Shown: positions 16,955 to 33,033 of the stretch, in pieces
How positions within the stretch are numbered: the first letter of the stretch is position 1
Layout of the letters: every line of letters starts with the position of its first letter
Source of the DNA: Geminicoccaceae bacterium
Lineage (GTDB): Bacteria > Pseudomonadota > Alphaproteobacteria > Geminicoccales > Geminicoccaceae
Assembly (NCBI GenBank): GCA_036274135.1
Contig: DASUGG010000213.1
Span: 1-40,317, forward strand
Direction of reading: 5' to 3'
DNA: 40,317 bases
The notes under the pieces: generated by a model
Told to the model about the DNA's origin: nothing
The model's database searches: none
What the model saw: only the letters and a program-made list of their open reading frames with translations
Made by a program: the position numbers and the translations under genes

Positions 16955-17596
16955 CTATTGGCTAGCCCACACGATCCGTGCCAGCCAGCTCACCTCGCCA
17001 ACCGCGTAACGTCTGGTCTCCTCGTTGTGGGCAAGAGGGGCGATCTCGACGCGCTGTGCGGTCCGGCGGAGCAGCAGGCCGACGCTCAGAGGGCCCTTGA
17101 TGGGCTTCAGCAGCACCCGGTCGTGACGGCGGATGCTGGCGCCTGGCGACGCGACCAGCAAGTCGCCGTCGCGATAGATCGGCACCATGGCATCGCCGTG
17201 GATCTCGACGGCATAGGCGTGGGGATCGTCGAGGTTGGGAAAGTCGATCTCGTCCCAATCCCCTCCCACCGGAAATCCGGCTTGGTCAAATAGGCTGGAC
17301 CGATGCGCCTGATCCAGGGCCACGCAGCGCATCCGCTGCGATGGAGGTTCGATCTTCGCTCCCGCCTCGTCCGACATCATCGCCACGAATTCTCGGAAGG
17401 GCGTTTCGGTAGCTGTCAGAATTTTCGCCAGGCTTTCGGTGCTGGGCCACCGTGGCTTGTCCTCCTTGGTGATCCGCTTGCTTGGATTGAACGTCGTGGG
17501 GTCCAGCCCGGCGCGACGTGCCAGCCCCGAAGCCGTCAAGCCGTGGTGCCTGGCGAGCCGGTCAATGCCGCGCCACACCTCGTCATGGGTGAACAT
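16955..17596 (-). CDS. CI/LexA-like repressor: N-terminal HTH plus C-terminal S24 peptidase-like domain with Ser->Ala at the nucleophile position
   Basis: MFTHDEVWRGIDRLARHHGLTASGLARRAGLDPTTFNPSKR is an XRE-type HTH. AVEIHGDAMVPIYRDGDLLVASPG sits where S24 proteins have GDSM. The C-terminus is WLARIVWASQ. Start taken at ATG 17596; the track uses TTG 17605. Confidence 0.85.
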   Translation of the reverse strand: MFTHDEVWRGIDRLARHHGLTASGLARRAGLDPTTFNPSKRITKEDKPRWPSTESLAKILTATETPFREFVAMMSDEAGAKIEPPSQRMRCVALDQAHRSSLFDQAGFPVGGDWDEIDFPNLDDPHAYAVEIHGDAMVPIYRDGDLLVASPGASIRRHDRVLLKPIKGPLSVGLLLRRTAQRVEIAPLAHNEETRRYAVGEVSWLARIVWASQ

Positions 17597-17894
17597 GGGA
17601 ATCAACCCCGACTAAGAATGCGATCCTGACCAACACTAGGAATGACCGCTGCGCTTGTCAGTAGGAACATCGGGCTATGCAGCGTCCGAAGGCGAAGCAT
17701 TCCGGCTTGCCATACAGGCATTAATTCCGCTATATCTAGATCCTTCACCGCGCGATGTGTCTGTCGCGCTTGGCGGCCTCGATCGCGCCGCTCGCGCGCC
17801 TCGCTGTTCAGGGGCGGGCTTGATCGACCCGATCGTGCGCCCCTTACGGAGGAACTTCGTGATCAGCTCGCAAGCGTCCTGCGGCCGGGTCGCC

Positions 17895-18269
17895 ATGGCC
17901 GTCTTCGTCGATGGGACCGAATGCTGTTGGCTTCGCGGACTGAGACGCGGGTTTCGCCACTGTTTCGTCGCCTTGGAACATGGCGATGCCTGGCTGGTCT
18001 GCGATTCCCTGAAGAGCCACATGGAGCTTACGCTGCTGGACCTGCCGCGCTCGGTTGATCTCGGGAGACACTATGCGGGCCAAGGTCACCGGGTCTTGAT
18101 CGGACGAACCGGCAAGCAGCCGCGACAGCGAACCCTGCCGCCGGGCCCGCTGACCTGCGTCAGCGTCGCCAAGCGGCTACTGGCGATTCGCGCGGCCCGG
18201 GTTTGGACTCCCTGGCAGCTCTTCTCCTACCTCTTGCGCCAACCGCACGTCTGGCGCCTGGTCCCCTGA
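17895..18269 (+). CDS. Hypothetical protein between the repressor and the portal gene
   Basis: This is the ORF frame of track entry 17655..18269. I start it at the internal ATG 17895 (MAVFVDGTECCWLRG...) because the upstream 240 nt are AT-richer and look non-coding. I recognised no family, and no clear RBS is present. Confidence 0.35.
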   Translation: MAVFVDGTECCWLRGLRRGFRHCFVALEHGDAWLVCDSLKSHMELTLLDLPRSVDLGRHYAGQGHRVLIGRTGKQPRQRTLPPGPLTCVSVAKRLLAIRAARVWTPWQLFSYLLRQPHVWRLVP

Positions 18270-18307
18270 ACGCCTCGACCATCGCGGAGTTGAGGCACGA
18301 TTGACGC

Positions 18308-18336
18308 TTGACAAGTAGGCGTTATAGGAATATAAA
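18308..18336 (+). promoter_or_regulatory. Near-consensus sigma-70-type promoter upstream of the portal gene
   Basis: TTGACA (18308-18313), a 17-nt spacer, then TATAAA (18331-18336), in a locally AT-rich patch 89 nt upstream of portal ATG 18425. A second TTGACG lies at 18301. Confidence 0.5.
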
Positions 18337-18424
18337 CCAAGCCAGTTCATGACGCCACGCGCCGCCTTCAGGCCAGTCGGTGCAGCTGCGGATCAATTCC
18401 CCCGATCGTACGCGGAGTGGTTGG

Positions 18425-19957
18425 ATGGGTGATCTCTCGCTCGAGGCCGTCTGGTCGCGTTACCAGCGGGCCAAGGACCGGCGACTTCGCTGGGAAGGCC
18501 TCTGGCGGGACTGCTACACATACGTGCTGCCGCACCGTGGCGCCGGATTCGGCGCCGAGTTCGCGCCCGGTCGCAACCACGCCGAGCGGACCTTCGACGG
18601 CACGGCGCCCGACGCCGTGGAGCAACTCGCAGCCTCGCTGCTCGCCGAGCTCACGCCGCCCTGGTCGCAGTGGTTCGGCCTGGTCCCGGGACCGCAGGTT
18701 CACTCCTTCGAGCGTGGGATCCTCGCCGAAAGGCTGGACCAGGTCTCGCTGACGATTCAGGCTCATTTCGACCGTTCCAATTTTGCGGCCGAGATCCATC
18801 AGGCCTTCCTCGACCTGGTGAGCATCGGCAGCGCCACGCTCCTGTTCGAGGAAGCGCCGATCGGGGACCTCAGCGCCTTTCGGCTGACCGCGGTGCCGAT
18901 GGCCGAGATGTGGTTCGAGCCGGGGCTCAACGGTCAGATCAGCGGCCATTTTCGACAGAGCGCGCTGCCCATGGAGGCGCTCTGCGCACGGTTTCCCGAG
19001 GCAGAGCTGCCGCGCAGCCTCTTGGACGAGTGCCGGCGGCACAAGGAGCGGCATCTCGAAGTGGTCGAGGGTGTCTTGCCGGCGGGCACCGGCTACCACT
19101 ACCTCGCCATGCTTCATCACGGCACCGACCAGCCGCTGCTGCTTGCGCAGGGCCGCTTCGACAGTTCGCCCTTCATCAGCTTCCGCTGGCTCAAGGGCGC
19201 GGGCGAGGTCTACGGACGCTCACCGGTAATGACGGTGCTGCCCGACATCAAGACGGTCAACAAGGTCGTCGAACTGGTGCTCAAGAACGCCTCGATCTCG
19301 GTCACTGGGATCTGGCAGGCGGACGACGACGGCGTGCTCAATCCGGCCAACATCCAGCTAGTGCCCGGCAGCATCATACCCAAGGCGGTCGGCTCCGCCG
19401 GCCTCACGCCCTTGCAGGCGCCCGGTCGCTTCGACGTCTCGAGCCTGATGCTCGAGGAGTTGCGCGGCCGTATCCGGCATGCGTTGCTGGTCGATCGCCT
19501 CGGCGCGATCGGCAGCCGCAAGATGACCGCTACCGAGGTGCTCGAACGCAGCGCCGAAATGACCCGGCTGCTCGGCGCGACCTACGGGAGGCTCCAGGCG
19601 GAGCTGCTGACACCGCTCCTGGGCCGTGCCATGGGGATCCTGCGCCGCCGCGGCGAGATCCCTGATCTCGCCCTCGACGGTCGCCTGGTGGACCTGCACT
19701 ACAAGTCGCCGCTCGCCCGCCAGCAGGCGCAGCAGGACGTGCAAAGCACTCTGCTTTGGCTGGAGACCACCGCGAAGATGGGCGCGGAGGCGCTTGCCGC
19801 GGTCGACCTCCCCGCGACGGCGCGCTGGCTGGGTGACCGGCTGGGCGTGCCAGGCCAGCTGATCCGCGACATCGAGTCACCGAGCGCGCTCCTAGACCTG
19901 GCGGAGGACCTGGTTGCCGTGCGGCCGGAAGTGACGGAAGCGGCTGATGGACAGTGA
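18425..19957 (+). CDS. Phage portal (head-to-tail connector, podovirus type)
   Basis: 510 aa. GGAG lies 8 nt upstream of ATG 18425. The N-terminal pattern RYQRAKDRRLRWEGLWRDCYTYVLP...ERTFDGTAPDAVEQLAASLLAELTPPWSQWFGL is typical of T7 gp8-like connector proteins. Its position at the head of the structural module fits. Confidence 0.8.
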   Translation: MGDLSLEAVWSRYQRAKDRRLRWEGLWRDCYTYVLPHRGAGFGAEFAPGRNHAERTFDGTAPDAVEQLAASLLAELTPPWSQWFGLVPGPQVHSFERGILAERLDQVSLTIQAHFDRSNFAAEIHQAFLDLVSIGSATLLFEEAPIGDLSAFRLTAVPMAEMWFEPGLNGQISGHFRQSALPMEALCARFPEAELPRSLLDECRRHKERHLEVVEGVLPAGTGYHYLAMLHHGTDQPLLLAQGRFDSSPFISFRWLKGAGEVYGRSPVMTVLPDIKTVNKVVELVLKNASISVTGIWQADDDGVLNPANIQLVPGSIIPKAVGSAGLTPLQAPGRFDVSSLMLEELRGRIRHALLVDRLGAIGSRKMTATEVLERSAEMTRLLGATYGRLQAELLTPLLGRAMGILRRRGEIPDLALDGRLVDLHYKSPLARQQAQQDVQSTLLWLETTAKMGAEALAAVDLPATARWLGDRLGVPGQLIRDIESPSALLDLAEDLVAVRPEVTEAADGQ

Positions 19958-20213
19958 TCGCCAGCCGAGCGGCTGGTCCTGGTTCGAGGCGCGCGAAGAA
20001 GCGTCGCCCGATCCTGGCGAGACGTCGCTCTGCCGGGCCTTCGCGCGATGCTTCTCGGGACCCGAGGGGCAGCAGGCCCTGGCTCACCTGAGGCGGCGGA
20101 TTCTCGATCGAAGGCTCGGGCCGAGCGCCACCGACGCCGAGCTCTGGTACCTCGAAGGTCAGCGCGGCGCGATTGCGTATGTGCTCGGCATGATCGAGCG
20201 CGGCGGCCGCTGA
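19947..20213 (+). CDS. Bbp19-like small phage protein
   Basis: 88 aa, overlapping the portal stop by 11 nt. AFARCFSGPEGQQALAHLRRRIL...LEGQRGAIAYVLGMI resembles the Bbp19 family pattern (tF.sPeG..VL.dL...reGrr.v...I) found after the portal in BPP-1-like phages. Confidence 0.55.
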   Translation: MDSDRQPSGWSWFEAREEASPDPGETSLCRAFARCFSGPEGQQALAHLRRRILDRRLGPSATDAELWYLEGQRGAIAYVLGMIERGGR

Positions 20214-20229
20214 TCCGCCGCTTCGGCAA

Positions 20230-21051
20230 ATGACAACCTCGACTTTAGGGGCGACGATGATCGAGCAGGAACTGCAGGCAGAAGAGGGCACGGTCGAATC
20301 CGATGTCGAAGCAGCGGCCGCCGCCGTGGCCGAGCCCGATCCGGATGCCTCGCTCGAGCCGAAGCCTTCACGTCCGGCCGGGGTGCCGGAGAAGTTCTGG
20401 GACCGAGAGGCGGGCTGCGTTCGCACCGACGCTCTCCTGAAGTCGTACCTCGAGATCGAGCGCAAGCTCGGGTCGATGATCGCGCTGCCGGCGGACGATG
20501 CCGACCTTGATGGCCGCAGACGCCTCCACCGGGCACTCGGTGTACCCGAAAGCCCGGACGGCTATCAGATCGCGGCGCGAAGCGCTCTTCTGGAGCCGGC
20601 TGCAGAGATCAATGCGAAGCTCCATGCTGCCGGGTTCACCCCGCAACAGGCGCAGCTGGTCTACGACCTGGCGGCTGACCATCTGCTGCCGTTGGTGGAC
20701 GAGCTGCTCGATGAGTTCGGCTCGGCGCACGACTCCGAGCGTCTTGCCCATCGCTTCGGCGGCACCGAAGCCTGGCGGGCTCTGGCCCCCCAGATCAAGA
20801 CGTGGGGCCGCGCCAATCTTTCGGACAAAGTCTTCGCCACGCTGTCGGCCAGCTATGATGGCGTGCTCGCGATGCATCAGATGATGCAGGCGCGCGAGCC
20901 GGCGGTGCTGCATGACGGCGAAGGTCCGCAAGCCGCGCTCGACGAGGCCGCGCTCGGCCAGATGATGCGCGATCCGCGCTACTGGCGAGACCGCGATCCG
21001 CAGGTGATCGCGAAGGTGACCGAGGGCTTTCGGCGCCTCTATCCGGCATAG
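20230..21051 (+). CDS. Probable capsid scaffolding protein
   Basis: 273 aa, acidic and alanine-rich, helical-looking, with the VPEKFWDRE...LLKSYLEIERKLG motif common in podovirus scaffold proteins. It occupies the gp9 position. An alternative start at ATG 20257 is preceded by AGGGG. Confidence 0.6.
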   Translation: MTTSTLGATMIEQELQAEEGTVESDVEAAAAAVAEPDPDASLEPKPSRPAGVPEKFWDREAGCVRTDALLKSYLEIERKLGSMIALPADDADLDGRRRLHRALGVPESPDGYQIAARSALLEPAAEINAKLHAAGFTPQQAQLVYDLAADHLLPLVDELLDEFGSAHDSERLAHRFGGTEAWRALAPQIKTWGRANLSDKVFATLSASYDGVLAMHQMMQAREPAVLHDGEGPQAALDEAALGQMMRDPRYWRDRDPQVIAKVTEGFRRLYPA

Positions 21052-21135
21052 CAGATCAGGGCCGCGGCGCTCCGCGGCACCCGATGTTCAACCTCTGTGG
21101 AGCCGGCCGGTGGGCCGGTGCCGAAGGAGACGTTC

Positions 21136-21498
21136 ATGGCGAGACTCCGGCGCAAGGGCCTCGGCACAACCGAGCTGGTTCGCGACAACGACGGCGCCAA
21201 GATGCCGATCATGCCCTGGGGCAAGGTGCACAACCTGGCCGCGACCGAGGCGACAGCGGCGCGCAACGCGACCGCGATCTCGGCCACCTGCGGTGTGGTC
21301 AGCATCGTCGCGATCGGCGGCAGCGCGCACTTCAAGCAGGGCAATTCGAGCGTCGTGGCAACCACCAGCGACGCTTACCTTCCGGAAGGCGAGTGGCACG
21401 AGCTGCCCGTCTTCGAGGGCGCCGACTGGAGCTACGTGTCGATCCTGTCTGCGGCCGGTTCCGGCAACATCGTGGCGCAGATCTGCGAGCGGCAATAG
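21136..21498 (+). CDS. Small phage protein of unknown function
   Basis: 120 aa. The strong RBS GAAGGAGA lies 5 nt upstream of ATG 21136. Composition looks beta-rich. I recognised no family. Confidence 0.5.
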   Translation: MARLRRKGLGTTELVRDNDGAKMPIMPWGKVHNLAATEATAARNATAISATCGVVSIVAIGGSAHFKQGNSSVVATTSDAYLPEGEWHELPVFEGADWSYVSILSAAGSGNIVAQICERQ

Positions 21499-21501
21499 GC
21501 A

Positions 21502-22269
21502 ATGACCGCGCTTGGCCTTCGGCCCTCTGGACGGCTTGCCTTAAGCTCAAGGCGCCGGCGTGGCGCCGCAGCGCCGCCGGAATCGCCGGATCAGATCAGC
21601 TCTCTCGCGTTCTGGTATGACGCGGAAGCCAGTCCCACGATCGAGGCCAGCGGCGTGATCGAGCGCTGGGACGATTTGAGCGGCAACGCGAACCACGCCG
21701 ACCAGACGGTCAGCAGCGAGCGCCCGGTCAAGGCGACCGATGGTCAAGGTCGCCACGTCATCCGGTTTGACGGGATAGACGATACGCTCGCGGTCGCGAG
21801 CCCGCCGGATCTCGCGGCAGGCATGACGCTGTTCGCCGTGTTCGCGGTACGTACGCGCAGCGATTTCTCCGGCGTCGTCTCGGCCGCCGCCACCACCGGC
21901 GTCGACCACGAGGCGTTCTTCAGCCTGCAGAACGCAAGCGCGGCGAGTGAGCAGTTTCAATGGATCGGCAAATCCGCTGGCGCGGATCCTCTGCTGATCG
22001 GACGTGACGACAACGTAACCGCCGGTCTCGCGATCCTGACGGCGGCCGCTGGCAACGCTCTGTTCGAGGACCTCGACGGCCAAGGTTCGGACACCTACGA
22101 CGGATCGTTCGGGAGGCCAGACCAGATCGTCCTTGCCGGTCACTACGACGAAGGAACCTACGGCTACAGCGCCATCGACGTCTATGAGGTCGGGCTCTAT
22201 GCCCGCGCCCTCACGGCGGGAGAGAGGGGCGTGCTGCAGGGCTATCTCAGGAACAAGTACGGGTTCTAG
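21502..22269 (+). CDS. LamG/concanavalin-A-like lectin domain protein
   Basis: SSLAFWYDAEASPTIEASGVIERWDDLSGNANHADQTVSSERPVKATDGQGRHVIRFDGIDDTL is the characteristic Laminin_G_3 opening (L.lW.DA.d...v..W.D.SGngn.a.Q....P......FdG.dD.L). Confidence 0.7.
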   Translation: MTALGLRPSGRLALSSRRRRGAAAPPESPDQISSLAFWYDAEASPTIEASGVIERWDDLSGNANHADQTVSSERPVKATDGQGRHVIRFDGIDDTLAVASPPDLAAGMTLFAVFAVRTRSDFSGVVSAAATTGVDHEAFFSLQNASAASEQFQWIGKSAGADPLLIGRDDNVTAGLAILTAAAGNALFEDLDGQGSDTYDGSFGRPDQIVLAGHYDEGTYGYSAIDVYEVGLYARALTAGERGVLQGYLRNKYGF

Positions 22270-22271
22270 GT

Positions 22272-23561
22272 ATGGTTGATCGCACGCCACAGGAGTTCGG
22301 CGGAGTTCCCGACGGAGTCACGGACAGTACGGCGGCGATTCAGGCCGCCATCGATGCCGCGGGAGCGTCGGGCGACGACGTCTTGATCGCCGGCGGCATC
22401 TTCCGGACCAGTGGGCAACTGAATTGCCCGCACGGCGCACTGCGCATCAAGGGCGATGGCGGTATTCAGGCGCTGAGCGGCGCCTGGCCGAGCCAAGCGG
22501 CGATCCTGGCGATCACCGGAAGCGGCGTCGTCGTCGATGGTGACGGTCTGTTGCTCGATCAGGCCAACGTGATCCCCGAGGGCTACAGCTTGCGGGGAAC
22601 CGGGGCGGTCGGGCTGACGATGTCAGGCTTGATCTCGCGCAATTCGCAAGGCGCCTTCCTGTTGCTCGACGATGGTTGCACCGACGTGCTGGTGCACGAC
22701 ATCCACCATCGCGGCAGCGGCTATGGAATCCTCGCCGCGGACCCGCAGAGCCTGGCCCGGATCGAGATTCGCGACAGCGATTTCGAGCACGCCGGAACAG
22801 GCCCGACCGGCGACGGGATTCAGCTCAATTGCGCAACGCATGGTGGCGACGACGTCGAGGTCACCGGCGTCACGGTGCGCGGCTACATCGGTGAGTCGGT
22901 CGGCCACGGCAGTGGCTTCGGCTTCGCAGGGGTGACGAACACGCGCCTGTTCGGTTGCATTGCCGAACTCTGCGAAAGCGATGGCTTCCGGTGGCAGCAG
23001 CAGAGCAACGATACGGTTGCCTTCAACTGCCGCGCGTTGAACTGCGGCAGGCCCGATCACGTCAACGACTGCGGCTCCGGCTTCATCGTGTACGACTCCA
23101 GCCGTTGGCACGGCGAGAGCCTCCTGGCCGTCGGCTGCTGGTACCATGGGATCGCGCTGAGCGGACAAAACAGCGTATCTCACCCCGCGGACAACGTGAT
23201 CGTCCGCTGCAGCGCTCTCGACATCGGCCGCGACTGCTTCCACTTCACCGCGCAGGCCCGGGCCGTGATCACCCGTTGCCATGCTCGCGATCCCTCGCGA
23301 AGCAGCGACGGCGGTTACGCCGCCTATCATCTCGCGAGACAAGGTGGCGCGACGCTCGAGAACGTCGACTGCACGGGCGACAGCAACACGGTCATCTCCA
23401 CCGGCGCCACCACGCCGCTCGGCGACACGGTCGTGCGACCAGAAAGTGTCAACTGCCTGGTCAACGGCATCAGCGGCGGTACCGCGGTAGCGCGCGTCAC
23501 GGAGGATGGGGCGATTCGCCTGACGGAATCGGGCGAGGAGCGCCTGCTCGAAGCGGCTTAG
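22272..23561 (+). CDS. Right-handed beta-helix (pectate-lyase-3-like) protein, possible tailspike/depolymerase
   Basis: The N-terminus FGGVPDGVTDSTAAIQAAIDAAGASGDDVLIAGGIF is the Pectate_lyase_3 opening motif, followed by repetitive G/D/N-rich beta-helix-like repeats. It lacks a T7-type particle-binding N-domain. Confidence 0.7.
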   Translation: MVDRTPQEFGGVPDGVTDSTAAIQAAIDAAGASGDDVLIAGGIFRTSGQLNCPHGALRIKGDGGIQALSGAWPSQAAILAITGSGVVVDGDGLLLDQANVIPEGYSLRGTGAVGLTMSGLISRNSQGAFLLLDDGCTDVLVHDIHHRGSGYGILAADPQSLARIEIRDSDFEHAGTGPTGDGIQLNCATHGGDDVEVTGVTVRGYIGESVGHGSGFGFAGVTNTRLFGCIAELCESDGFRWQQQSNDTVAFNCRALNCGRPDHVNDCGSGFIVYDSSRWHGESLLAVGCWYHGIALSGQNSVSHPADNVIVRCSALDIGRDCFHFTAQARAVITRCHARDPSRSSDGGYAAYHLARQGGATLENVDCTGDSNTVISTGATTPLGDTVVRPESVNCLVNGISGGTAVARVTEDGAIRLTESGEERLLEAA

Positions 23562-23790
23562 CGAAGGCGACGTCATCGGGTCGCCTCGTCGATCTCGCCG
23601 CAAGATTTGCCGGTCGAAGCAGCGGACCAACCCGCGCCCAGGAGCGGGCCCGCCCGAACTCGACCCGCCGAGGTGGAGCGCATCCACCGAGACCGCGGCC
23701 CGCCCGGGCGGATGGAACGGCGAAAGCCACCCCGTACGGTGCGGACCAACCGCGCGTCGTCTCTCGGTACACACCCACGGAGGGACGAAC

Positions 23791-24609
23791 GTGTCCACGA
23801 CGATCGACCAAGCTTTCATCAAGCAGTTCGAGGAAGAGGTCCATCAGGCCTATCAGCGGATGGGGTCGAAGCTGCGCAATACCGTTCGCATGAAGAACGG
23901 GGTTCGCGGCAGCTCGACCGTGTTCCAGAAGGTCGGCAAGGGCAGTGCCGCGACCAAGGCGCGGCATGGCAAGGTGCCGGTCATGAACGTCGACCACACG
24001 CCGGTCGAGTGCCAGCTGCTCGACTTCTATGCCGGTGACTGGGTCGACCATCTGGACGAGCTCAAGACCAACATCGACGAGCGCCAGGTGCTCGCCAATG
24101 CCGGGGCCTTCGCCCTGGGCCGTAAGACCGACGAGCTGATCATCCAGGCGCTCGATGCCACCACCAACCTCGCCGGCACCGGCGCCGACGGGCTGACCAA
24201 GGCCAAGGTGCTGACGGCCTTCGAGCTGCTCGGCAACAAGGACGTTCCCGACGACGGCCAGCGCTTTGCGGTGATCGGCTGGAAGCAGTGGTCGGATCTG
24301 CTCGAGCTGCCGGAGTTCGCCGATGCCGACTTCGTCGGCCCGGACGAGCTGCCGTGGCGGGGGACCCAGGCGAAGCGCTGGCTCGGCACCCTCTGGTTGC
24401 CGCATTCCGGTCTGAAGCTCAGCAGCGGGGTTCGTACCTGCTTCTGGTACCACCGCAGCGCCATCGGCCACGCCATCGGTCAGGAGGTTGCGACCGACGT
24501 GACCTGGCATGGCGACCGCGCCGCTCACTTCGTGTCCAACTCGATGAGCCAGGGCGCATGCCTGATCGATGCCGACGGCGTCGTCGAGATCCCCTGCCTG
24601 GAGAGCTGA
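23791..24609 (+). CDS. Major capsid protein (N4-gp56/BPP-1-type HK97-fold family)
   Basis: 272 aa. GTG start with GGAGGGA 6 nt upstream. IKQFEEEVHQAYQRMGSKLRNTVR...FQKVGKGSA...HTPVECQLLDFYAGDWVDHLDELK...WYHRSAIGHA is typical of this capsid family. It occupies the gp10 position. Confidence 0.8.
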   Translation: MSTTIDQAFIKQFEEEVHQAYQRMGSKLRNTVRMKNGVRGSSTVFQKVGKGSAATKARHGKVPVMNVDHTPVECQLLDFYAGDWVDHLDELKTNIDERQVLANAGAFALGRKTDELIIQALDATTNLAGTGADGLTKAKVLTAFELLGNKDVPDDGQRFAVIGWKQWSDLLELPEFADADFVGPDELPWRGTQAKRWLGTLWLPHSGLKLSSGVRTCFWYHRSAIGHAIGQEVATDVTWHGDRAAHFVSNSMSQGACLIDADGVVEIPCLES

Positions 24610-24611
24610 GC

Positions 24612-25406: not shown

Positions 25407-25459
25407 GGCGGCGCGGCTCGGCTTCTCCCGTCTGTATTCAGCGTGAAGGACCGTCAGTC

Positions 25460-26032: not shown

Positions 26033-27933
26033 CCCGGGCTTTCCTGGCGCAGACGAACTTCACCGCCGGTGAGCTTGACCCGCGGCTGCTCGGACGGACC
26101 GATCTCAAGTCGTACGAGAACGGTGCGGCCAGGCTGCGCAACGTCGTGGTCGATACAACCGGAGGCGCCCGGCGCCGCCCCGGCATGGCCTATGTCGCCA
26201 CCGCTCCGGGCGAGGGCCGGCTCGTGGCGTTGGAGACCGGCCCCTCTCAAGCTTTCCTGCTCGTGTTCACCGAGTTCCGGATCGACATCTATCGCGACGG
26301 GATCTGGCGAGCGATGGTCGCCGCTCCCTGGTCGGGGGCACAGCTGTCGCAAATCGTCTGGGCGCAGCAGAAGGATGATCTCCTCATCATTCATCCAGAC
26401 ATTCCGCCGCAGCGGTTGAGCCATGAGGGCGATGCCGCATGGAGCATCGAGGAGTGGCGTTTCGAAGAGAAGACCGATGGCGCGCTCTGCGCTCCGTTCG
26501 CGCGCTTTGCCGACACCGACGTGGAGATCCAGGCATCGGCGACGAGCGGCGCGATCACCTTGACCACCTCGGCGCCGCACTTCGTCGGCCAGCATCTCGG
26601 CGTACGCCTGCGCATCGAGGGTAAGCAGGTCGAGCTGACCAACATCCAGTCCACGACCGAGGCGGACGCCTTGGTGATCCAGACCCTCACCAGCACCGGT
26701 CCCACCAAGAATTGGGAAGAACTTGCATTCAGCGAAGCGCGTGGCTGGCCTGTAGCGCTCAGCTTCCACCAGAACAGGTTCGTGATCGGCGGCTCCCGAG
26801 ATCTGCCCAACGCTCTCTGGTTCTCGAGATCGGGCCGGTTCTTCGATTTCGACACGGGCGAGGGTCTCGATGACGAGGCGATCGTATTCCGCCTGGCCGC
26901 CAACGACGACCCGGCCATCCGGGCGCTCGTGTCGGGTCGAAGCCTGCAGGTGTTCACGAGCGTCGGTGAGTGGGTGGTGTCGGGCGACCCCCTCACGCCC
27001 ATCAATATTCAGGTCGAGCAACAGAGTAGGATCGGGTCGCCGCGCCACCGCCAGGTGCCGCCGGTCGATGTCGACGGTGCGACCATGTTCGTCGCACGGA
27101 ATGGCCGCGAGATCCGTGAGTTTCTGTTCACCAGCGTCGAGGACGCCTACCAGGCCACAGATCTGGCGCTCCTTGCCAGGCATCTGGTGATGGATCCGGC
27201 GGATCAGGCCTTCGATCAGGGCCGCCGCCTCTTCCTGATCGCGATGGCGGACGGCTCGCTCGCGGCCATCGCAATCTACCGCAATGCGGACGTCGTTGCT
27301 TGGAGCCTGCAGGAGACCGACGGCCGGGTGTTGTCGGTAGCGATGCTGGACGGACAGGCGATGCTGCTGGTCGCACGGGCCAACGGCGTGTTCATCGAGC
27401 GATTCGACGACACCCTGCTCGTCGACTCGGGCCGTCGCTTCAGCAGCCCGCAGCCCGGCCTCGTCTGGGAGGGCTTGGATCATCTCGAAGGCCAGCAGGT
27501 TGCGGTCGTCGCGGACGAGCAGGTCGTGGAGCCGGCGACCGTCACCGGCGGCGCGATCATGCTTGGCGCACCGGCGCGTACGGTCGTCGCTGGCCTGCCC
27601 TACACGCACATCATCGAGCCCATGCCGGCTGTGCTGACGGCCGGCGGCGCCGGCGGGCAGGATCCGCCCTATCGGCCGGTCCGGATCACGCTGCGGCTGC
27701 TGGCGACGCAAAACCTTTGCATCGACACCGGCGGGGGCTTGCGGGACTTGCCGCTGCACGCGGTAGGCGAAGGTCCGACGGACCGCAGCCCCGCTCCATT
27801 CACGGGCGACCGCTCGGTGCGTGCGCTCGGATGGCGACGCGGCGCGGCGCAACCGCCCTGGCGGATCGAGCAGGCCGCACCGTTGCCCTGCACATTGCTC
27901 TCAGCAACCACGGAAGTGAAGGTGAACAGCTGA
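26029..27933 (+). CDS. Tail tubular protein B / nozzle-like (T7 gp12 position)
   Basis: 634 aa. Its start overlaps the upstream stop (ATGA). The N-terminus is NFTAGELDPRLLGRTDLKSYENGAARLRNVVVDTTGGARRRPG. Size and position fit a nozzle protein. Confidence 0.6.
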   Translation: MTRAFLAQTNFTAGELDPRLLGRTDLKSYENGAARLRNVVVDTTGGARRRPGMAYVATAPGEGRLVALETGPSQAFLLVFTEFRIDIYRDGIWRAMVAAPWSGAQLSQIVWAQQKDDLLIIHPDIPPQRLSHEGDAAWSIEEWRFEEKTDGALCAPFARFADTDVEIQASATSGAITLTTSAPHFVGQHLGVRLRIEGKQVELTNIQSTTEADALVIQTLTSTGPTKNWEELAFSEARGWPVALSFHQNRFVIGGSRDLPNALWFSRSGRFFDFDTGEGLDDEAIVFRLAANDDPAIRALVSGRSLQVFTSVGEWVVSGDPLTPINIQVEQQSRIGSPRHRQVPPVDVDGATMFVARNGREIREFLFTSVEDAYQATDLALLARHLVMDPADQAFDQGRRLFLIAMADGSLAAIAIYRNADVVAWSLQETDGRVLSVAMLDGQAMLLVARANGVFIERFDDTLLVDSGRRFSSPQPGLVWEGLDHLEGQQVAVVADEQVVEPATVTGGAIMLGAPARTVVAGLPYTHIIEPMPAVLTAGGAGGQDPPYRPVRITLRLLATQNLCIDTGGGLRDLPLHAVGEGPTDRSPAPFTGDRSVRALGWRRGAAQPPWRIEQAAPLPCTLLSATTEVKVNS

Positions 27934-28352
27934 TGGGTGCTCTCAGCAGCCTTGCCACGACCGGCCTCAGCCTCGCGCTGTCCCAGCAGGCTGCCAGTGG
28001 CCGGACCCGCGATGCGCGCCAGGAGCGCGACCGCAGAATCGAGGAGATCCAGGCCCGTAACCGTGAGGAGAGCCGCAGGCGACGGGAGGAACTGCGACGG
28101 CGCCTCGCTGCCGAGCGGGCGCGTGCGGGCGCCGCCGGCGTGGCGACCAGCGGCGGATCTTCCGATGCCGTTCTGCGCGGGCTCGTGGAGGAAGCCGACA
28201 GGGCCGACCAGGCCGCCGCCGGCTCGGTGCGCCGGCAGATCAGCGAGCTGCGGCGGAACGCCAACAGGACGCGACGCAACAGCCTGCTCGACCTCGCGGG
28301 CGATGTCGCCGGCGGCGTGTTCGGCGGCTCCGGCCGTTCGTCGCTGCTCTAG
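27933..28352 (+). CDS. Arg/Glu-rich coiled-coil protein (possible small internal virion protein)
   Basis: 139 aa. ATG overlaps the nozzle stop (TGATG). It has a hydrophobic N-terminus, an RDARQERDRRIEEIQARNREESRRRREELRRRLAAERARA segment and a Gly-rich C-terminus. Confidence 0.5.
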   Translation: MGALSSLATTGLSLALSQQAASGRTRDARQERDRRIEEIQARNREESRRRREELRRRLAAERARAGAAGVATSGGSSDAVLRGLVEEADRADQAAAGSVRRQISELRRNANRTRRNSLLDLAGDVAGGVFGGSGRSSLL

Positions 28353-28398
28353 ACGGTCGTCCGGCACGCCGCGAATCCAGCAACGAGGCTAGGAGCCC

Positions 28399-30633
28399 AT
28401 GTCCGACACCTTCACCCGCGATCCCCAGCCGCGAATCCGCTATGCTGGCGATGGCGTTCGAATCAGCTTCGACCTGCCGTTCCCGATTCTGGCGAGCGAT
28501 GACTTGCTGGCCTTCGTCGACGATCAGCCGGCGACGGGGTTCGCGATCGCCGGTCTCGGCGAGCCGACAGCCAAGATCACGTTCCTCCAGCCGCCGGCCG
28601 CCGGCGCGACCGTAACCCTGCTGCGTCGCACTGAAAGCATTCGCGAGACCGAGTTCGTCGACGGCGGCCCGTTCCGGGCAGCAGCGATCAACGCCGAACT
28701 CGATCGCGTCATGCTGCTCATCCAGGAGAACCGGGAAGAGCACAATCGTGCGCTCAGGGCTCGGCCGTTCGAGGGCGATCTCGACTTCTGCCTGCCGCCC
28801 GCGGCGCAACGGGCCAACAGGCTGCTCGGCTTCGACAGCTCCGGCCAGCCGATGATATTCGGCCAGAGCGAGTTACCGATCGGTGGCGACGCCAGTGGCC
28901 AGTTGGTCACGCCAGCCGGTGCGACGACGGCGCGTGCGCTCGGCGAGCATCTGGCGTTCGTGGTGAACGTCCGGGATTTCGGTGCGCTCGGCGACGGTGT
29001 GTCCGATGATGGCGCCGCGTTCCAATCGGCCCTCGCGGCGGCACAGGCACGCTCTGGCGTGGTCTACGTTCCGGCCGGCCCCAATCCCTATCTCCTCGGC
29101 AGCGCCCTCGTGCTCGACGGCGTGCGGCTGATCGGCGATGGCCCCGGCAGCGTGCTCAAGGTGGCGGTCGCCAGCGGCTTCGGCTTGCAGCTCACCGGCG
29201 ACGCGCCTCGCCTTTCGGGCCTCCGGCTGATCGGTCCCGGAGCCGGTGCCTGGCCACAGGGGGCCGAGGACGTGAATCTTGCCGGCGTGGCCCTTGATGG
29301 CGTTCAGATCGCCGCCGGCGCGCGCGATGCTATGCTGCATGGGGTTGAGGTCGCGGCCTGCCATACGGGTCTGGCGATCGAAGGTCCGGTTGGCGCCATC
29401 GTCGATTGCCGCTTTCTGTTCTGCCGCAACGGATCGGAGGTGCGTGCCGGCGGTGTGGGCTCGATACATGTGGCGCGCACGACGTTTCACGGCTGCAGCT
29501 CTGGGATGCGCGCGGACGCCGGTTCGCTGTTCGCCCGGGCAACGCTTGCCGGAGGGACGGCCTCGTCTTGCGGCAGGGCGATCGATCTTGTCGCTCCGGC
29601 AAGCGGCCGGCGCGTCGTCGAGATCTCCAATCTGGAGCTGGCGGGCAATCTCGAGGCCGATGTCAGGATCGGGCCGCGCCACGCCGTGGCGGTACGCGGC
29701 TGCTGCATCGACGCCACCGGCAAGCGCAGCGGGGTCGGCTTGGAGTTGCTCGCCTCCGGCGAGACGGACCTCGCCCCGGGTTTGATCGTCGAGAATACCT
29801 GGGCCGACGTCACCGAGGTCTCGTCGGTCCAGCTGAGCGGGGGAAGCAACCTCGACCTGCTGGAGCCCGGAGATCTGATCGTTCTCGGCGCTGACTCCGA
29901 TGACGTCGATGATCTTTGGACGGCCCTCAAGGCAGGCCGCGCGGGCGTCGTGCACAGTGTGATCAGCCAGACGACTGAAAGCGCCGAGATCGCATTGGCG
30001 CGGGCTGGGAATCGGCCCCTCATCCAGACCGACGACCTCATCAGGGTGGTCGGTCGCTCCGGCACCGCGACGGTCGACAGCATTGCAGCGGCCACGCCTG
30101 CGGCGACCTTCGCCTGGCTGCGAGCCGACGACTACACTCGCGTGCTCTCCGCCCAGAACCCGATGCCAGCCGATCAGATCGACCTGGTCGGCAGCAATGC
30201 GGAGCTGCGGCATTTCCCCGGCATCAGCGATGAGCCGGTCGCGATTTCCGGCGTCGAGTTGCGGCGGGGAGCGGTCAACGGCGCCCTCACGCGGCTCGTG
30301 ACGCTCGAGCTCGCCCAGGATACCGCCGCCTCCTTCGCGCCGGACTCGACCGTTGGTATGGTCCATGTCTTCGGCCATGCGGCGCTCGGCGATCCGAGTG
30401 CTGCCATGTTCACCTATCGTGCGGATGGCCTCGCCTACACCGAACTGCTTGCCCGGGCCGACAACGACCCTCCGACGGTCAAGGTGACGGCGGCAACGGC
30501 GCTGACGGGGACGACCGGCGAGTCGGGCGTGTTCACGTTCTCGGCGCACACCGACGGCAGGATCTACGTGGAGAACCGCATGGTCGGGTCGCCGCGTACG
30601 CTGAGCCTGTTTTTGATCGGTGCGCCGCTCTAG
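28399..30633 (+). CDS. Tail fibre/tailspike: T7 gp17-like N-terminal particle-binding domain fused to a pectate-lyase-like beta-helix
   Basis: The N-terminus RIRYAGDGVRISFDLPFPILASDDLLAFVDD...VTLLRRTESIRETEFVDGGPFRAAAINAELDRVMLLIQE parallels the T7 gp17 N-domain (Y..DG....F..PF...v.v......i.l.R.T.....dF.dGs.l.A..LN...q....qE). It is followed by VNVRDFGALGDGVSDDGAAFQSALAAA (Pectate_lyase_3 opening). Confidence 0.8.
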   Translation: MSDTFTRDPQPRIRYAGDGVRISFDLPFPILASDDLLAFVDDQPATGFAIAGLGEPTAKITFLQPPAAGATVTLLRRTESIRETEFVDGGPFRAAAINAELDRVMLLIQENREEHNRALRARPFEGDLDFCLPPAAQRANRLLGFDSSGQPMIFGQSELPIGGDASGQLVTPAGATTARALGEHLAFVVNVRDFGALGDGVSDDGAAFQSALAAAQARSGVVYVPAGPNPYLLGSALVLDGVRLIGDGPGSVLKVAVASGFGLQLTGDAPRLSGLRLIGPGAGAWPQGAEDVNLAGVALDGVQIAAGARDAMLHGVEVAACHTGLAIEGPVGAIVDCRFLFCRNGSEVRAGGVGSIHVARTTFHGCSSGMRADAGSLFARATLAGGTASSCGRAIDLVAPASGRRVVEISNLELAGNLEADVRIGPRHAVAVRGCCIDATGKRSGVGLELLASGETDLAPGLIVENTWADVTEVSSVQLSGGSNLDLLEPGDLIVLGADSDDVDDLWTALKAGRAGVVHSVISQTTESAEIALARAGNRPLIQTDDLIRVVGRSGTATVDSIAAATPAATFAWLRADDYTRVLSAQNPMPADQIDLVGSNAELRHFPGISDEPVAISGVELRRGAVNGALTRLVTLELAQDTAASFAPDSTVGMVHVFGHAALGDPSAAMFTYRADGLAYTELLARADNDPPTVKVTAATALTGTTGESGVFTFSAHTDGRIYVENRMVGSPRTLSLFLIGAPL

Positions 30634-30640
30634 CCCGCCA

Positions 30641-32152
30641 GTGGGCGAGGAAACCGATCGGGAAGTTCAGCCCGAGGGTCCGCAGATCGGTTTCCGTCAG
30701 TTCGTCTGGCTCTGGAACCACTACCAGGGCCAGACGACCCCGCCCCTGCACGTCGAGATTGCCGAATGGCTGGAACGGCGCTGGCGGCAGGGCGACCGCC
30801 GCCTTGTGCTCCTGGTTTTCCGCAGCGCCGGCAAGTCCACGCTGGTCGGCATCTTCTGTGCCTGGCTGCTGCTGAACGATCCGGACCTCAGGATAATGGT
30901 CCTCGCAGCTGAACACGATCTGGCGCGCAAGATGGTCCGCAACGTCAAGCGGATCATCGAGCGGCATCCACTGACCCGTGGGCTGCGGCCAAAGCGGGCA
31001 GAGCAGTGGGCCTCGGATCAGTTCACGGTGCGACGGCGGTTGACCCGAAGAGACCCGTCACTCCTCGCGCGCGGCATCGGCGCGAACATCACCGGCTCGC
31101 GCGCCGACGTGGTGATCTGCGACGACGTTGAGGTGCCGAATACCTGCGCGACGGCGCCGCGACGCGAGGAGCTGCGATCACGCCTGCAGGAGATCAGCTA
31201 CGTGCTCGTGCCCGACGGTCTTCAACTCTATGTCGGCACGCCGCACAGCTACGACTCGATCTATGCGGAGGAGAGCAGCGAGGAAGAGGAGCCGCCCTTC
31301 CTGTCGGGGTTCCAGCGGCTTTGCCTTCCCCTGCTCGATGCGCGCGGCGCAAGTCGTTGGCCGGAGCGGTTCACGCCCGAGGGGGTCGCCGAGATCCGGC
31401 GGCGGAGCGGGCCCGCCAAGTTCGAAAGCCAGATGTTGCTTCGGCCAAGGAGCGTCGAGGATATCCGGCTGGATCCGGCTCTCCTCGTGCGCTACGACGC
31501 CCCGCTCGAGTTGCGGGAGGCCAACGGCGAGAGCATTCTTTCGCTGTCCGGCCGGCGCCTGGTCTCGGCGAGTTGCTGGTGGGATCCGGCCTATGGCGCG
31601 CCCGACGGGGGCGACGCGAGCGTCGTGGCCGCGGTGTTCGTCGACGAGGCCGGCGGCTATTGGCTGCACGACATTCGCTACCTCACGCACGACCCCGCGC
31701 GACGGCACGAGGTCGACGAGGCCACCCAGCTGTGCCGCGAGGTCGCCGCCTTCGTCAGAGAGCTGTATCTGCCATCGATCACCATCGAGACGAACGGCCT
31801 GGGCCGGTTCCTGCCGGCCTTGCTTCGTCGCGAGCTTCGGACCCTTGGCGCCGCCTGCGCCGTGCTCGAGCACGTCTCGAGGAGCAGCAAGGAGCAGCGG
31901 ATTCTGCAAGCGTTCGACCCGCTGCTGGCGGCCGCCGCGCTTCGCGCGCATGCGGCCGTCTGGGCCTCGCCCTTCATCGAGGAGATGCGCGAGTGGCGTC
32001 CGAGACGCCGTTGCCGCGACGATGGTCTCGACGCGGTGAGCGGGTGCCTGCTCGCCGAACCGGTCCGACTGCCCAGGGCGGGACCGGGCAAGCGCTTCGA
32101 TTGGCGCCCGGGGCGATCGCTTCACAGGGCAACCATCGACTTCGATCCCTGA
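30641..32152 (+). CDS. terL: Terminase large subunit
   Basis: Walker A VFRSAGKST, Walker B DVVICDDVE, coupling motif YVGTPH. The nuclease-domain acidic residues are present (CWWDPAYG, ITIETNG, RDDGLDAV). Start is GTG 30641, or GTG 30620 overlapping the fibre gene. Confidence 0.85.
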   Translation: MGEETDREVQPEGPQIGFRQFVWLWNHYQGQTTPPLHVEIAEWLERRWRQGDRRLVLLVFRSAGKSTLVGIFCAWLLLNDPDLRIMVLAAEHDLARKMVRNVKRIIERHPLTRGLRPKRAEQWASDQFTVRRRLTRRDPSLLARGIGANITGSRADVVICDDVEVPNTCATAPRREELRSRLQEISYVLVPDGLQLYVGTPHSYDSIYAEESSEEEEPPFLSGFQRLCLPLLDARGASRWPERFTPEGVAEIRRRSGPAKFESQMLLRPRSVEDIRLDPALLVRYDAPLELREANGESILSLSGRRLVSASCWWDPAYGAPDGGDASVVAAVFVDEAGGYWLHDIRYLTHDPARRHEVDEATQLCREVAAFVRELYLPSITIETNGLGRFLPALLRRELRTLGAACAVLEHVSRSSKEQRILQAFDPLLAAAALRAHAAVWASPFIEEMREWRPRRRCRDDGLDAVSGCLLAEPVRLPRAGPGKRFDWRPGRSLHRATIDFDP

Positions 32153-32231
32153 TCCAGGGCGCCTCGCCGCGTCGCTCGCGCGCGAGATGCCCTCGAGATC
32201 GAGCCGCACTTCATGATCGGGAGGAAATCAG

Positions 32232-32615
32232 GTGGGCGAGGAATGGAGCATCAGCTGGATGTGGTGGACGACGGCGGTCGAGGTGCCGGTGCTCGGTTGC
32301 ATGTTTTGGTTGATCCATCATGGCCGTCGCGAGGCTGAGCGCGCGCTGCTCAGGATCTACCGCGAGATCCAGGGAAACCTGAACATGGTCCTGGACAACC
32401 TCGCCCAGTCCAAGCTCGAAACCGCGCGCTTCTACGCCACGGTGACCGACCTCAAGGATGTCGAGCAGCGCCTGACCGACCACCTCCTGCGCCTTGAGAC
32501 GCGGCTTACCTACCAGCCTCCGACGCCATCGGGTGGCACGCCGCCAGACTGGTCGCGGCCCCCGGTCGAGACACGCCGCGAGCCGCAGAAGAAGGTCGAT
32601 TTCGATGCTGCGTGA
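32232..32615 (+). CDS. Membrane-anchored coiled-coil protein (holin/spanin-like position)
   Basis: 127 aa. GGGAGGAA lies 7 nt upstream of GTG 32232. It has a single N-terminal TM segment (WWTTAVEVPVLGCMFWLI), then a coiled-coil-like segment and a Pro-rich tail. Confidence 0.5.
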   Translation: MGEEWSISWMWWTTAVEVPVLGCMFWLIHHGRREAERALLRIYREIQGNLNMVLDNLAQSKLETARFYATVTDLKDVEQRLTDHLLRLETRLTYQPPTPSGGTPPDWSRPPVETRREPQKKVDFDAA

Positions 32616-33033
32616 GCGCGCGGTAGCGGTGAAGATCAGCCCCGACCTGGTCGAACGCCTGGCCAACACGCTGCTCGATCTTGCCCGGGACCAGGATGTC
32701 CGCGTGATCGAGGCGCTTGCCGCGGTGCTTGCAAGGCAAGCGCGCGACGACCAGCCGGAGGGGTATCCCGGCCTCTCCGAAACCGGGTCGCAACCAAGGT
32801 TCGTCATCGAGCCATCAAGCCCTGAGGACACACTGCGCCGCGCGATCTGCCGTCGGATCGCCCGGCGGGCGCTGCACGGCACTCTGGTCGACCCGACCGG
32901 AGGAGCCACTGCAGCGCATCGTATCGACGTCAGCCCGGCATGGGCGCATGATCTCCTGCCGATTGGCATGTTCGGGCCATTCCTGTTCTACCGCCCACCG
33001 TCGCGCGCGGCTTGGCGAGTAGGTCGGGGCTGA
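32605..33033 (+). CDS. SleB-like (Hydrolase_2) cell-wall hydrolase, divergent; candidate endolysin
   Basis: 142 aa, overlapping the upstream gene by 11 nt. The C-terminus RRAICRRIARRALHGTLVDPTGGATAAHRIDVSPAWAHDLLPIGMFGPFLFYR follows the SleB-domain ending (A.r.A...l.G.....tgGAt.fH...v.P.Wa.....iG.H.FY). The N-terminal LANTLLDLARDQD sits where the family has ..EARGE. Confidence 0.5.
   Translation: MLRERAVAVKISPDLVERLANTLLDLARDQDVRVIEALAAVLARQARDDQPEGYPGLSETGSQPRFVIEPSSPEDTLRRAICRRIARRALHGTLVDPTGGATAAHRIDVSPAWAHDLLPIGMFGPFLFYRPPSRAAWRVGRG

Follow-up and report, generated by a model that had tools for sequence, protein, structure and literature searches.

A conserved T7-like particle gene cluster in Geminicoccaceae, a strong candidate for a podovirus-derived gene transfer agent-like element

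Gene content and borders of the particle cluster

The DNA analyzed here (the window) is a 40,317-nucleotide contig (40.3 kb, G+C ~67%) from a Geminicoccaceae bacterium (contig DASUGG010000213.1, assembly GCA_036274135.1). At positions 16955-33033 it carries a compact cluster of 18 open reading frames (ORFs), in which one minus-strand regulator gene faces 17 co-directional plus-strand genes and neighbours are separated by intergenic gaps of -14 to 229 nt. A first-pass annotation, made from the letters alone, had read these as the structural genes of a T7/BPP-1-like podovirus and as a candidate locus for a domesticated, gene transfer agent (GTA)-like particle. Based on its predicted genes and their conservation in relatives, we consider the cluster a strong candidate for a new podovirus-derived GTA-like element. 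Genes were assigned by profile searches against Pfam and PHROGs, and against NCBIfam for ten unassigned ORFs. The features of the locus are:

16955-17596, minus strand: CI/LexA-like regulator with S24 peptidase domain (PF00717, E 8e-7; phrog_4 transcriptional repressor), 213 aa from ATG
17597-17858, between the divergent genes: control region with two TAGGAAYR motifs, 17637-17644 and 17662-17669, putative operators
17820-18269, plus strand: orf141, small conserved protein in cro-like position (145 homologues; alternative start GTG 17859 after GGAGG)
18308-18336, plus strand: sigma-70-type promoter TTGACA-N17-TATAAA of the particle operon; a third TAGGAAYR, 18325-18332, overlaps spacer and -10 hexamer
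18380/18425-19957, plus strand: portal, T7 gp8 type (PF12236, E 3e-128; phrog_332)
19947-20213, plus strand: Bbp19-like small protein (PF25181, E 3e-16)
20230-21051, plus strand: scaffolding protein, T7 gp9 type (PF05396, E 5e-12)
21136-21498, plus strand: u133, conserved 120-aa protein specific to Geminicoccaceae-type clusters
21502-22269, plus strand: virion structural protein (phrog_10356, E 2e-18)
22272-23561, plus strand: beta-helix (pectate-lyase-like), tailspike-like protein (PF13229, PF12708, tail spike PHROGs)
23562-23790, plus strand: structured leader of the capsid gene (alignment, RNAalifold)
23791-24609, plus strand: major capsid protein, HK97 fold, PF19821 type (PF19821, E 2e-85; phrog_3437)
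24612-24881, plus strand: p89, small conserved protein after the capsid gene, in most lineages (phrog_18004, E 8e-18)
25035-25406, plus strand: 123-aa protein with hydrophobic N-terminus, kept in Geminicoccaceae-type loci, no family match
25460-26032, plus strand: tail adaptor (tail tubular protein A, T7 gp11-like; phrog_394, E 1.5e-48)
26029-27933, plus strand: tail nozzle (tail tubular protein B, T7 gp12-like; phrog_376, E 8e-127)
27933-28352, plus strand: small internal virion protein at the T7 gp14 position (by gene order; phrog_418, E 3e-4)
28399-30633, plus strand: tail fibre/tailspike, T7 gp17-type N-terminal adaptor and pectate-lyase-like domain (phrog_1640, E 3e-20; PF12708, E 8e-14; PF03906 weak)
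30620-32152, plus strand: large terminase subunit (TerL), ATPase and T7-type RNaseH-like nuclease (phrog_38, E 4e-84; PF22530, PF03237)
32232-32615, plus strand: membrane protein with N-terminal hydrophobic segment, holin- or spanin-like (phrog_29007, E 8e-22)
32605-33033, plus strand: SleB-like cell-wall hydrolase (endolysin; family profile against 4f55, E 1.9e-5, and 4fet, E 7.8e-5)

The order portal, scaffold, capsid, adaptor, nozzle, small internal protein, fibre, TerL corresponds to T7 genes 8-9-10-11-12-(13-16)-17-(18)-19, with equivalents of genes 15, 16 and 18 absent. Apart from the small internal protein, this late-region order had been named in the first-pass annotation, and Pfam and PHROG profiles match it gene by gene at the positions proposed; the membrane protein and hydrolase that it placed behind TerL were likewise recovered, as phrog_29007 followed by the SleB-like profile (4f55, E 1.9e-5). 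The assignment of the small internal protein is by position, which matches that of a 159-aa gene after gp12 in phage Hodr, and its Elioraea orthologue matches phrog_418 at E 3e-7. Homologues of the nozzle carry the precomputed PF25675 (Phage_nozzle) annotation. The last gene is taken to encode a cell-wall hydrolase because its family profile matches the SleB spore cortex-lytic enzyme, and its orthologues have weak precomputed PF07486 (Hydrolase_2) annotations. Among 110 TerL sequences, conservation of the Walker A, Walker B, GTPH coupling and nuclease acidic motifs is 95% or higher, the membrane protein is kept 3' of TerL in most lineages, and the fibre combines a conserved N-terminus with a C-terminus that varies across lineages. 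Together, these genes encode a complete head, a short tail, a packaging motor, a lysis pair and the cluster's own CI/LexA-like regulator.

Several small genes are conserved yet lack an assigned family. The orf141 gene lies between the regulator and the portal in all lineages, and R-H-C and P-L-x-C-V are invariant and T-P-W-Q-L nearly invariant among its 145 homologues. Searches of Pfam, PHROG, NCBIfam and PDB sequences gave no match for it. A Foldseek search of the PDB with its confident AlphaFold2 model (pLDDT 82.5) gave nothing significant (best E 0.2, faintly cysteine-peptidase-like), and we therefore assign it neither to the peptidases nor to the terminases. Lineages outside Geminicoccaceae have two extra small conserved ORFs between regulator and portal (e.g., 4743-5156 and 5720-5959 in L047; L numbers denote the loci compared). 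The u133 protein has a mean column identity of 73% over 18 loci and no Pfam or PHROG match, and neither its profile nor that of the Bbp19-like family found anything below E 0.4 among PDB sequences. None of the ten unassigned ORFs was placed in an NCBIfam family.

Functions expected of a complete phage were sought in the same ORFs. In agreement with the first-pass annotation, none of the 18 matched an integrase, excisionase, replication, RNA polymerase or small terminase family in Pfam, PHROG or NCBIfam, and no gp15/gp16-like large ejection proteins were found among them. Hodr has 159-, 783- and 1247-aa proteins after its nozzle, at the T7 gp14, gp15 and gp16 positions; the cluster has only the small one. 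A divergent small terminase (TerS) may be present, because five small ORFs have no assigned function. A tRNA scan of the 40.3-kb window found no tRNA genes, consistent with the reported lack of a tRNA attachment site, and a direct-repeat search of 16000-34000 for attachment (att) sites gave only short imperfect chance matches, none bracketing the cluster.

The cluster is bordered on both sides by the chromosomal genes originally named, as profile matches confirm: a sigma-54 activator on the left, and on the right genes for a major facilitator superfamily (MFS) transporter, AnmK, two TadE proteins, a TPR/SPOR protein and T2SSF-family (TadB/C-like) proteins. The resemblance in base composition and codon style that had been judged by eye is also quantitative. 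G+C is 66.5% in the cluster and 68.2% in the flanks, G+C at third codon positions (GC3) is 0.82 and 0.85, respectively, and relative synonymous codon usage (RSCU) correlates at r = 0.987; codon usage of the cluster is fully ameliorated to that of its flanks.

Distribution, synteny and selection

We surveyed one genome per GTDB species with the nozzle profile and clustered and Pfam-scanned the flanking ORFs. A nozzle relative is encoded in 238 stretches, the best 80 of which are full length at 48-85% identity. Carriers among these 80 include Geminicoccaceae metagenome-assembled genomes (MAGs), ten Azospirillum species, Magnetospirillum/Phaeospirillum, Elioraea, another Acetobacteraceae MAG and other Rhodospirillales-type MAGs; a few MAG carriers are labelled Hyphomicrobiales or Rhodobacterales. 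The module including the regulator is present in at least 80 species-representative genomes. For the portal, 4359 homologues were found, the closest of 511 aa. The closest 120 are 62-90% identical, many lie on contigs of 0.2-1.8 Mb, and the named ones belong to Geminicoccaceae or Alphaproteobacteria MAGs.

Searches with all window proteins (tblastn) recovered the whole module, collinear, in Geminicoccaceae, Azospirillum, Magnetospirillum/Phaeospirillum, Elioraea and other MAGs. The shared order is regulator (divergent), orf141, portal, Bbp19-like protein, scaffold, a variable segment, capsid, p89 and a second variable segment, followed by adaptor, nozzle, internal protein, fibre N-terminus, a third variable segment, TerL, membrane protein and hydrolase. 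The first-pass annotation had proposed looking for the same cluster between the same flanks in related species, and the cluster proved to be syntenic across genera and orders, often with housekeeping flanks in common. A class-I lysyl-tRNA synthetase gene (lysK) lies upstream in 13 loci and a dihydroorotate dehydrogenase gene (pyrD) downstream in 19, in both Azospirillum and Elioraea, and methylmalonyl-CoA mutase neighbours the cluster in eight. In Elioraea thermophila the cluster is preceded by lysK and an MprF-like gene and followed by an EamA transporter gene and pyrD. The genes to the right of the window's cluster are found again in L001 and L010, and those to its left in L165. Pfam assigned the 87 cluster-adjacent ORFs to housekeeping families, the only recombinase match being to the integrase-core domain rve_3, whose two members include the IS481-type transposase of L001.

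Some loci depart from this layout in detail. The IS481-type transposase of L001 (1-399) stands in place of the sigma-54 activator as left neighbour, next to a retained CtrA-type box and small-RNA region. In Azospirillum brasilense (L056), a host-type HAMP-PAS-GGDEF-EAL signalling gene (4395-6779) sits within the cluster between scaffold and capsid, and a tail-collar-domain protein (8858-9361) precedes the adaptor gene. A PF11351 (GTA_holin_3TM) gene lies directly 3' of the SleB-like hydrolase in 17 loci (e.g., L026 16529-16945) and has no homologue in the window.

Orthologous copies are overwhelmingly intact. Full-length, stop-free copies account for 129/131 capsid, 160/161 adaptor, 157/158 nozzle, 109/109 TerL and 76/84 portal genes, which puts the full-length share of the core genes at 90-100% of loci; the decay in orthologues that the first-pass annotation would have counted against domestication is thus not seen. 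It had also called for a measure of selection. Compared with two syntenic relatives, dN/dS is 0.09-0.37 for the 18 cluster genes, well below 1, and 0.10-0.29 for the flanking MFS, AnmK, TadE and TPR genes, and both dS and amino-acid identity are alike in cluster and flanks; for more distant pairs dS is near saturation. Among loci that share a neighbour, pairwise identities of cluster proteins follow those of pyrD (r 0.92-0.99) and lysK (r 0.90-0.95), and mean pairwise identity is of the same order (pyrD 67%, nozzle 70%, TerL 66%). In a neighbour-joining tree built from the capsid, adaptor, nozzle and TerL proteins, the host groups each form a clade of their own: Elioraea, Azospirillum, the Magnetospirillum group and the Geminicoccaceae type.

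Known phages are only about 30-53% identical to the cluster proteins, whereas family members are 50-90% identical to one another. The nearest sequenced relative is Pelagibacter phage Hodr, with a 34-kb genome (capsid 52.6%, portal 35%); HTVC pelagiphages, Yersinia YeP4-6, Methylophilales MEP301 and BcepC6B (nozzle 28-33%) are also among the nearest. No near-identical cluster was found within a complete phage in INPHARED or IMG/VR, whereas the first-pass annotation would have counted such a copy in a complete temperate phage against domestication, and neither the 50,697 phage records nor the 72,556 plasmids searched include a close relative. Location on a plasmid was rejected as no close copy occurs on PLSDB plasmids. 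The IMG/VR matches are mostly contigs or provirus calls of up to ~25 kb, typically ~18 kb, and four calls of 33-57 kb have the cluster at one end. Like T7-like, HTVC019P-, BPP-1- and BcepC6B-type podophages, the cluster has a collinear late region from portal to TerL. It differs from them in lacking RNA and DNA polymerase, primase, integrase, gp15/gp16-like core proteins and a recognisable TerS, and in being fixed in the chromosome.

Regulatory elements of the cluster

The regulator gene and orf141 are divergently transcribed in a cI/cro-like arrangement, and the regulator is divergent from the particle genes in every lineage. Its listed ORF begins at TTG 17605, the 213-aa version being counted from ATG. 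At the cleavage, Ser and Lys motifs, the window and its Geminicoccaceae relatives have DQAH, GDAM and GPLSVG; the self-cleaving LexA/CI type, with AQAG, GDSM and GEVMxK, is kept in Azospirillum, Magnetospirillum, Elioraea and other lineages. Cleavage site, Ser nucleophile and Lys are all replaced in the window, which supports the earlier description of this protein as non-cleavable. The window's regulator is predicted to be catalytically dead, and the loss appears limited to this lineage.

Only three copies of the motif TAGGAAYR are present in the window, all within control regions of the cluster. None of 100 shuffles reached three copies, a statistic that is indicative only because the motif was chosen after the alignment had been seen. 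It is conserved in the alignment of Geminicoccaceae-type loci, and TAGGAA or CAGGAA stands at the equivalent place in all other lineages. The consensus-like promoter reported at 18308-18336 is present, and its hexamers are kept while the spacer diverges in L001, L010, L087 and L090. An automatic promoter scan did not flag it, because the rule used needs a T at the last -10 position.

We then compared the control regions among lineages. Among 57 loci, 23 have an exact GTTC-N7-GTTC (or its complement), which we take to be the alphaproteobacterial LexA box, at a distance of 50-86 nt from the start codon of the regulator; in 22 of these 23 the distance is 77-86 nt. The background expectation is 0.009 per 260-nt region. 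The loci with the box include L017, L018, L020, L023, L031, L032, L035, L041 and L047; no copy was found in the window, in Geminicoccaceae-type loci or in those of Azospirillum. As regards control of particle production by the host, this SOS-type box is thus present in many loci and missing from the window, and the cluster keeps a repressor of its own. Ancestral control looks SOS-linked, because most lineages keep an autocleavable regulator and many an SOS-type box, and the window's lineage looks to have been rewired to another signal. By eye, GAACATGTGTTC occurs near the usual position of the SOS-type box in Azospirillum loci.

The first-pass annotation had also placed a CtrA box near the cluster promoter. 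Such a box does exist: the only TTAA-N7-TTAA in the window is at 16705-16719, past the 3' end of the regulator gene, and it is conserved in L001, L010 and L012. Its link to the cluster is doubtful, however, as it lies next to a small-RNA-like element. This element, within 16705-16877 and ~90 nt downstream of the box, has two CCUCCC motifs and a strong terminator (16841-16862). It scores 28.9 bits against the Rfam suhB/mmgR family RF00519, below the gathering score of 41, and Rfam at gathering thresholds gives nothing in the window. The box is more probably a promoter signal of the small-RNA-like element than of the cluster. CtrA control of the cluster was rejected as the primary reading, the sole box being outside the cluster promoters and beside this element.

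A further conserved element precedes the capsid gene. Alignment and RNAalifold folding of the leader (23562-23790) show a GGUGGA/UCCACC hairpin, two pairs of which covary, and a helix of 12 bp that is invariant and in which GUCGUCUCUC pairs with the capsid Shine-Dalgarno sequence GGAGGGACGA. The helix is predicted to sequester the Shine-Dalgarno sequence. The anti-Shine-Dalgarno motif GTCTCTC was found in 17 of 127 loci by motif scan, and a RAC(M)AACCG motif ~40-55 nt before the capsid start is common to all lineages. No Rfam family matches the leader.

A probable viriform and its alternatives

The cluster is probably an ancient, chromosomally fixed derivative of a T7/BPP-1-like podovirus and, because it appears to be vertically inherited and kept under purifying selection, is better described as a viriform (GTA-like) than as a prophage. 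It is a chromosomal, vertically inherited structural cluster, and no replication, integration or excision functions are recognisable in it, the five small ORFs without assigned function being the limit of that statement. The first-pass annotation preferred a domesticated GTA-like particle locus over a prophage remnant, and synteny, the lack of att repeats, the lack of a close phage or plasmid counterpart, intact orthologues under purifying selection and co-divergence with host genes all favour that choice.

A possible mode of action can be outlined from the genes. The regulator, bound to TAGGAA operators in the control region and at the -10 region of TTGACA-N17-TATAAA, would silence the 14.7-kb operon. 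In most lineages, DNA damage would lead to RecA-stimulated self-cleavage of the regulator (Ala-Gly site, Ser, Lys) and hence to derepression. The window's lineage would need another signal, possibly acting via the orf141 protein, because the cleavage residues and the SOS-type box are all lost. Heads and tails would assemble as in T7, and TerL would fill the procapsids by a headful mechanism. Packaging would probably be of low sequence specificity, and host DNA would be taken up, because there is no recognisable small terminase; the conservation of TerL and this lack of a TerS are the only features that bear on random packaging of host DNA. The membrane protein and SleB-like hydrolase would lyse the producer cell, and the particle would bind surface polysaccharide by its pectate-lyase-like fibre. 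Since the gp14-like protein stands alone, with no gp15/gp16 equivalents, DNA may be delivered to the periplasm only and require the recipient's uptake machinery. This step is drawn by analogy with the gene transfer agent of Rhodobacter capsulatus (RcGTA), whose DNA reaches the periplasm and requires the recipient's own uptake machinery.

Several points weigh against the viriform interpretation. Particles, packaged DNA and transfer are predictions from the genes. Most loci come from MAGs, and the distribution consists of presence counts. A retained phage-type repressor, and SOS-type induction in most lineages, are equally typical of defective prophages and bacteriocin-like particles. The head may hold more than the 16-kb cluster, unlike those of classical GTAs, because the genome is 34 kb long in the closest phage whose capsid protein is homologous; by this analogy, the GTA hallmark of packaged DNA too short to encode the particle may not apply here. 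Flanks differ among Geminicoccaceae sublineages, one of which (L012, L013, L015, L166, L167, L003 and L014) has no fibre or tailspike gene in the cluster. In this sublineage TerL comes soon after the gene for the small internal protein, the minimal cluster is ~11.8 kb (L167), and the receptor-binding protein must have been lost or be encoded at another site. Genes are fragmented in L003 and L165, which are MAGs and could contain assembly or sequencing errors. Finally, in L166 (Geminicoccaceae bacterium 1502E) a second prophage-like region (1-8220) abuts the regulator, with VapE-like, DUF1441, tape-measure and Phage_capsid_4 genes on the opposite strand; this region is unrelated to the particle cluster.

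The strongest competitor, though we consider it unlikely, is a domesticated particle kept for another use, such as an SOS-inducible killer or programmed lysis and DNA release, with packaged DNA being incidental. Pyocin- and PBSX-type systems have the autocleavable repressor or SOS-type control that is seen here as an S24 repressor in most lineages and an SOS-type box in many, and PBSX acts bacteriocin-like on sensitive Bacillus strains. Variable, polysaccharide-degrading fibres would suit strain-specific targeting, and there are no ejection proteins to move DNA across the inner membrane. Portal and TerL, the latter with its ATPase and nuclease motifs, are nevertheless kept in every copy examined, which would be needless for a DNA-free killer, and the fibre-less sublineage retains head and packaging genes. 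We know of no podovirus-type bacteriocin. The precedent set by PBSX is treated in PMC12946183.

A temperate phage that is still mobile, or a helper-dependent element whose replication and integration are supplied elsewhere and which prefers to insert near lysK or pyrD, is improbable. IMG/VR pipelines do call such regions proviruses, a ~34-kb head could carry the whole cluster, and both the variation of flanks among some lineages and the VapE-like and other phage genes beside the L166 regulator would fit mobility. On the other hand, the window has no integrase, att site or tRNA, the 87 adjacent ORFs are of housekeeping families with an IS481-type transposase as the only exception, codon usage is fully ameliorated, and the phage and plasmid collections hold no close relative. 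That the cluster proteins have diverged as far as the neighbouring housekeeping genes, and in parallel with them, also speaks against mobility, and judged by the comparative results an actively mobile phage is very unlikely. What would mark a temperate podophage prophage (integrase, att site, tRNA, sporadic spread) was not found, the position being kept across genera, and neither a single-subunit RNA polymerase nor a replication module of a T7-like prophage occurs between the chromosomal borders. Least probable of all is a recently inactivated, well-preserved prophage remnant that decays neutrally, even though replication and integration modules are absent and the fragmented genes of L003 and L165 could be read as decay. 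Relaxed selection, pseudogenes and patchiness, as expected of a cryptic remnant, are not observed. All 18 genes have dN/dS far below 1, catalytic motifs, control elements and the capsid leader are conserved, and orthologues are intact in more than 100 loci, down to ~50% identity and in several orders; neutral decay over such divergence would have destroyed the reading frames. Distribution, selection and co-divergence, taken together, appear to exclude a decaying remnant.

Among known systems, the cluster would work most like a GTA or viriform, although unrelated to RcGTA (Rhodogtaviriformidae). Both are phage-derived head, tail and packaging clusters of ~15 kb that are chromosomal, vertically inherited across orders and under purifying selection, without replication or integration genes; release by holin and endolysin would be shared, and recipient-assisted DNA uptake is plausible in both. 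RcGTA, however, is an HK97-type siphovirus with prohead protease and tape measure, whereas the present cluster is a podovirus with scaffold, adaptor, nozzle and fibre. Neither prohead protease nor tape measure was found in the cluster, and all matches are to podovirus families (PF12236, PF05396, PF19821, phrog_394, phrog_376); it is not homologous to the siphovirus head-tail cluster that defines RcGTA-like elements. Control of RcGTA lies with CtrA, GafA and quorum sensing, whereas a CI/LexA-like regulator travels with the present cluster. The present head is also probably not smaller than the cluster, which unlike RcGTA is known from its genes alone. The RcGTA type is absent from Rhodospirillales-type orders (PMC5721377). 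The present family is mainly found in deeper-branching orders, and its distribution looks complementary to that of RcGTA.

The idea of a podovirus-derived GTA is no longer without precedent since the publication, in 2026, of the first podovirus-like GTA-like element, FpGTA of Faecalibacterium prausnitzii, which is near-ubiquitous in its genus (PMC12946183). Like the present cluster, FpGTA is GTA-like and has short-tailed-phage genes (TerL, portal, scaffold, capsid) without other prophage functions. It is found in Firmicutes as two operons of 10.5 and 5.5 kb, and particles of ~40 nm with 8.4-8.9 kb of DNA were made experimentally (PMC12946183), whereas the present cluster, compared here with the published description, is alphaproteobacterial, confined to one locus, T7-collinear and known as genes only. 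PBSX-like prophages and SOS-induced pyocins are likewise chromosomal, non-replicating particle loci with a phage-type repressor and release by lysis, and their SOS-linked induction resembles that of most lineages of the present family. They are, however, myovirus- or tail-derived, contractile and restricted to narrower taxa, whereas the present cluster comes from a podovirus and is shared by several orders. The DNA that PBSX packages is random host DNA (PMC12946183). A "10 kb GTA" of Azospirillum was considered as possibly the same element; a paper that cites it ascribes it to RcGTA-like genes, and a link to the present cluster is no more than possible. Within an incomplete coverage of the literature, we found no published account, for these taxa, of a conserved cluster or GTA of podovirus or T7 type, FpGTA being the only comparable report.

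Very few independent GTA families have been described, and few are formally classified. Tentatively, the window may hold the first recognised member of an ancient, order-spanning, podovirus-derived GTA family of deep-branching Alphaproteobacteria (Geminicoccales, Azospirillum, Rhodospirillales, Acetobacterales). This would be a counterpart of RcGTA, which is confined to the remaining orders of the class, with TerS-less packaging of host DNA and periplasm-only delivery, and it would have been SOS-wired ancestrally and rewired in Geminicoccaceae. If so, domestication of phage particles was repeated within one class, a short-tailed architecture can be exapted as a GTA-like particle, and SOS-linked control is replaceable during domestication. 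Because cultured and genetically tractable bacteria are among the carriers (Azospirillum brasilense BR 11650 and HAMBI 3172, A. soli CC-LY788, Elioraea thermophila YIM 72297, Magnetospirillum molischianum DSM 120 and M. sulfuroxidans J10), the question is directly testable. The provirus calls that prophage predictors place on such regions (IMG/VR) would also inflate lysogeny estimates for these taxa.

Elsewhere in the window, the left flank carries a tyrosinase gene (7142-8098, minus strand) with a 177-aa partner ORF that has no family match (region 6598-8098), and two ORFs of 283 and 425 aa (12491-13342 and 13544-14821) without a Pfam match.

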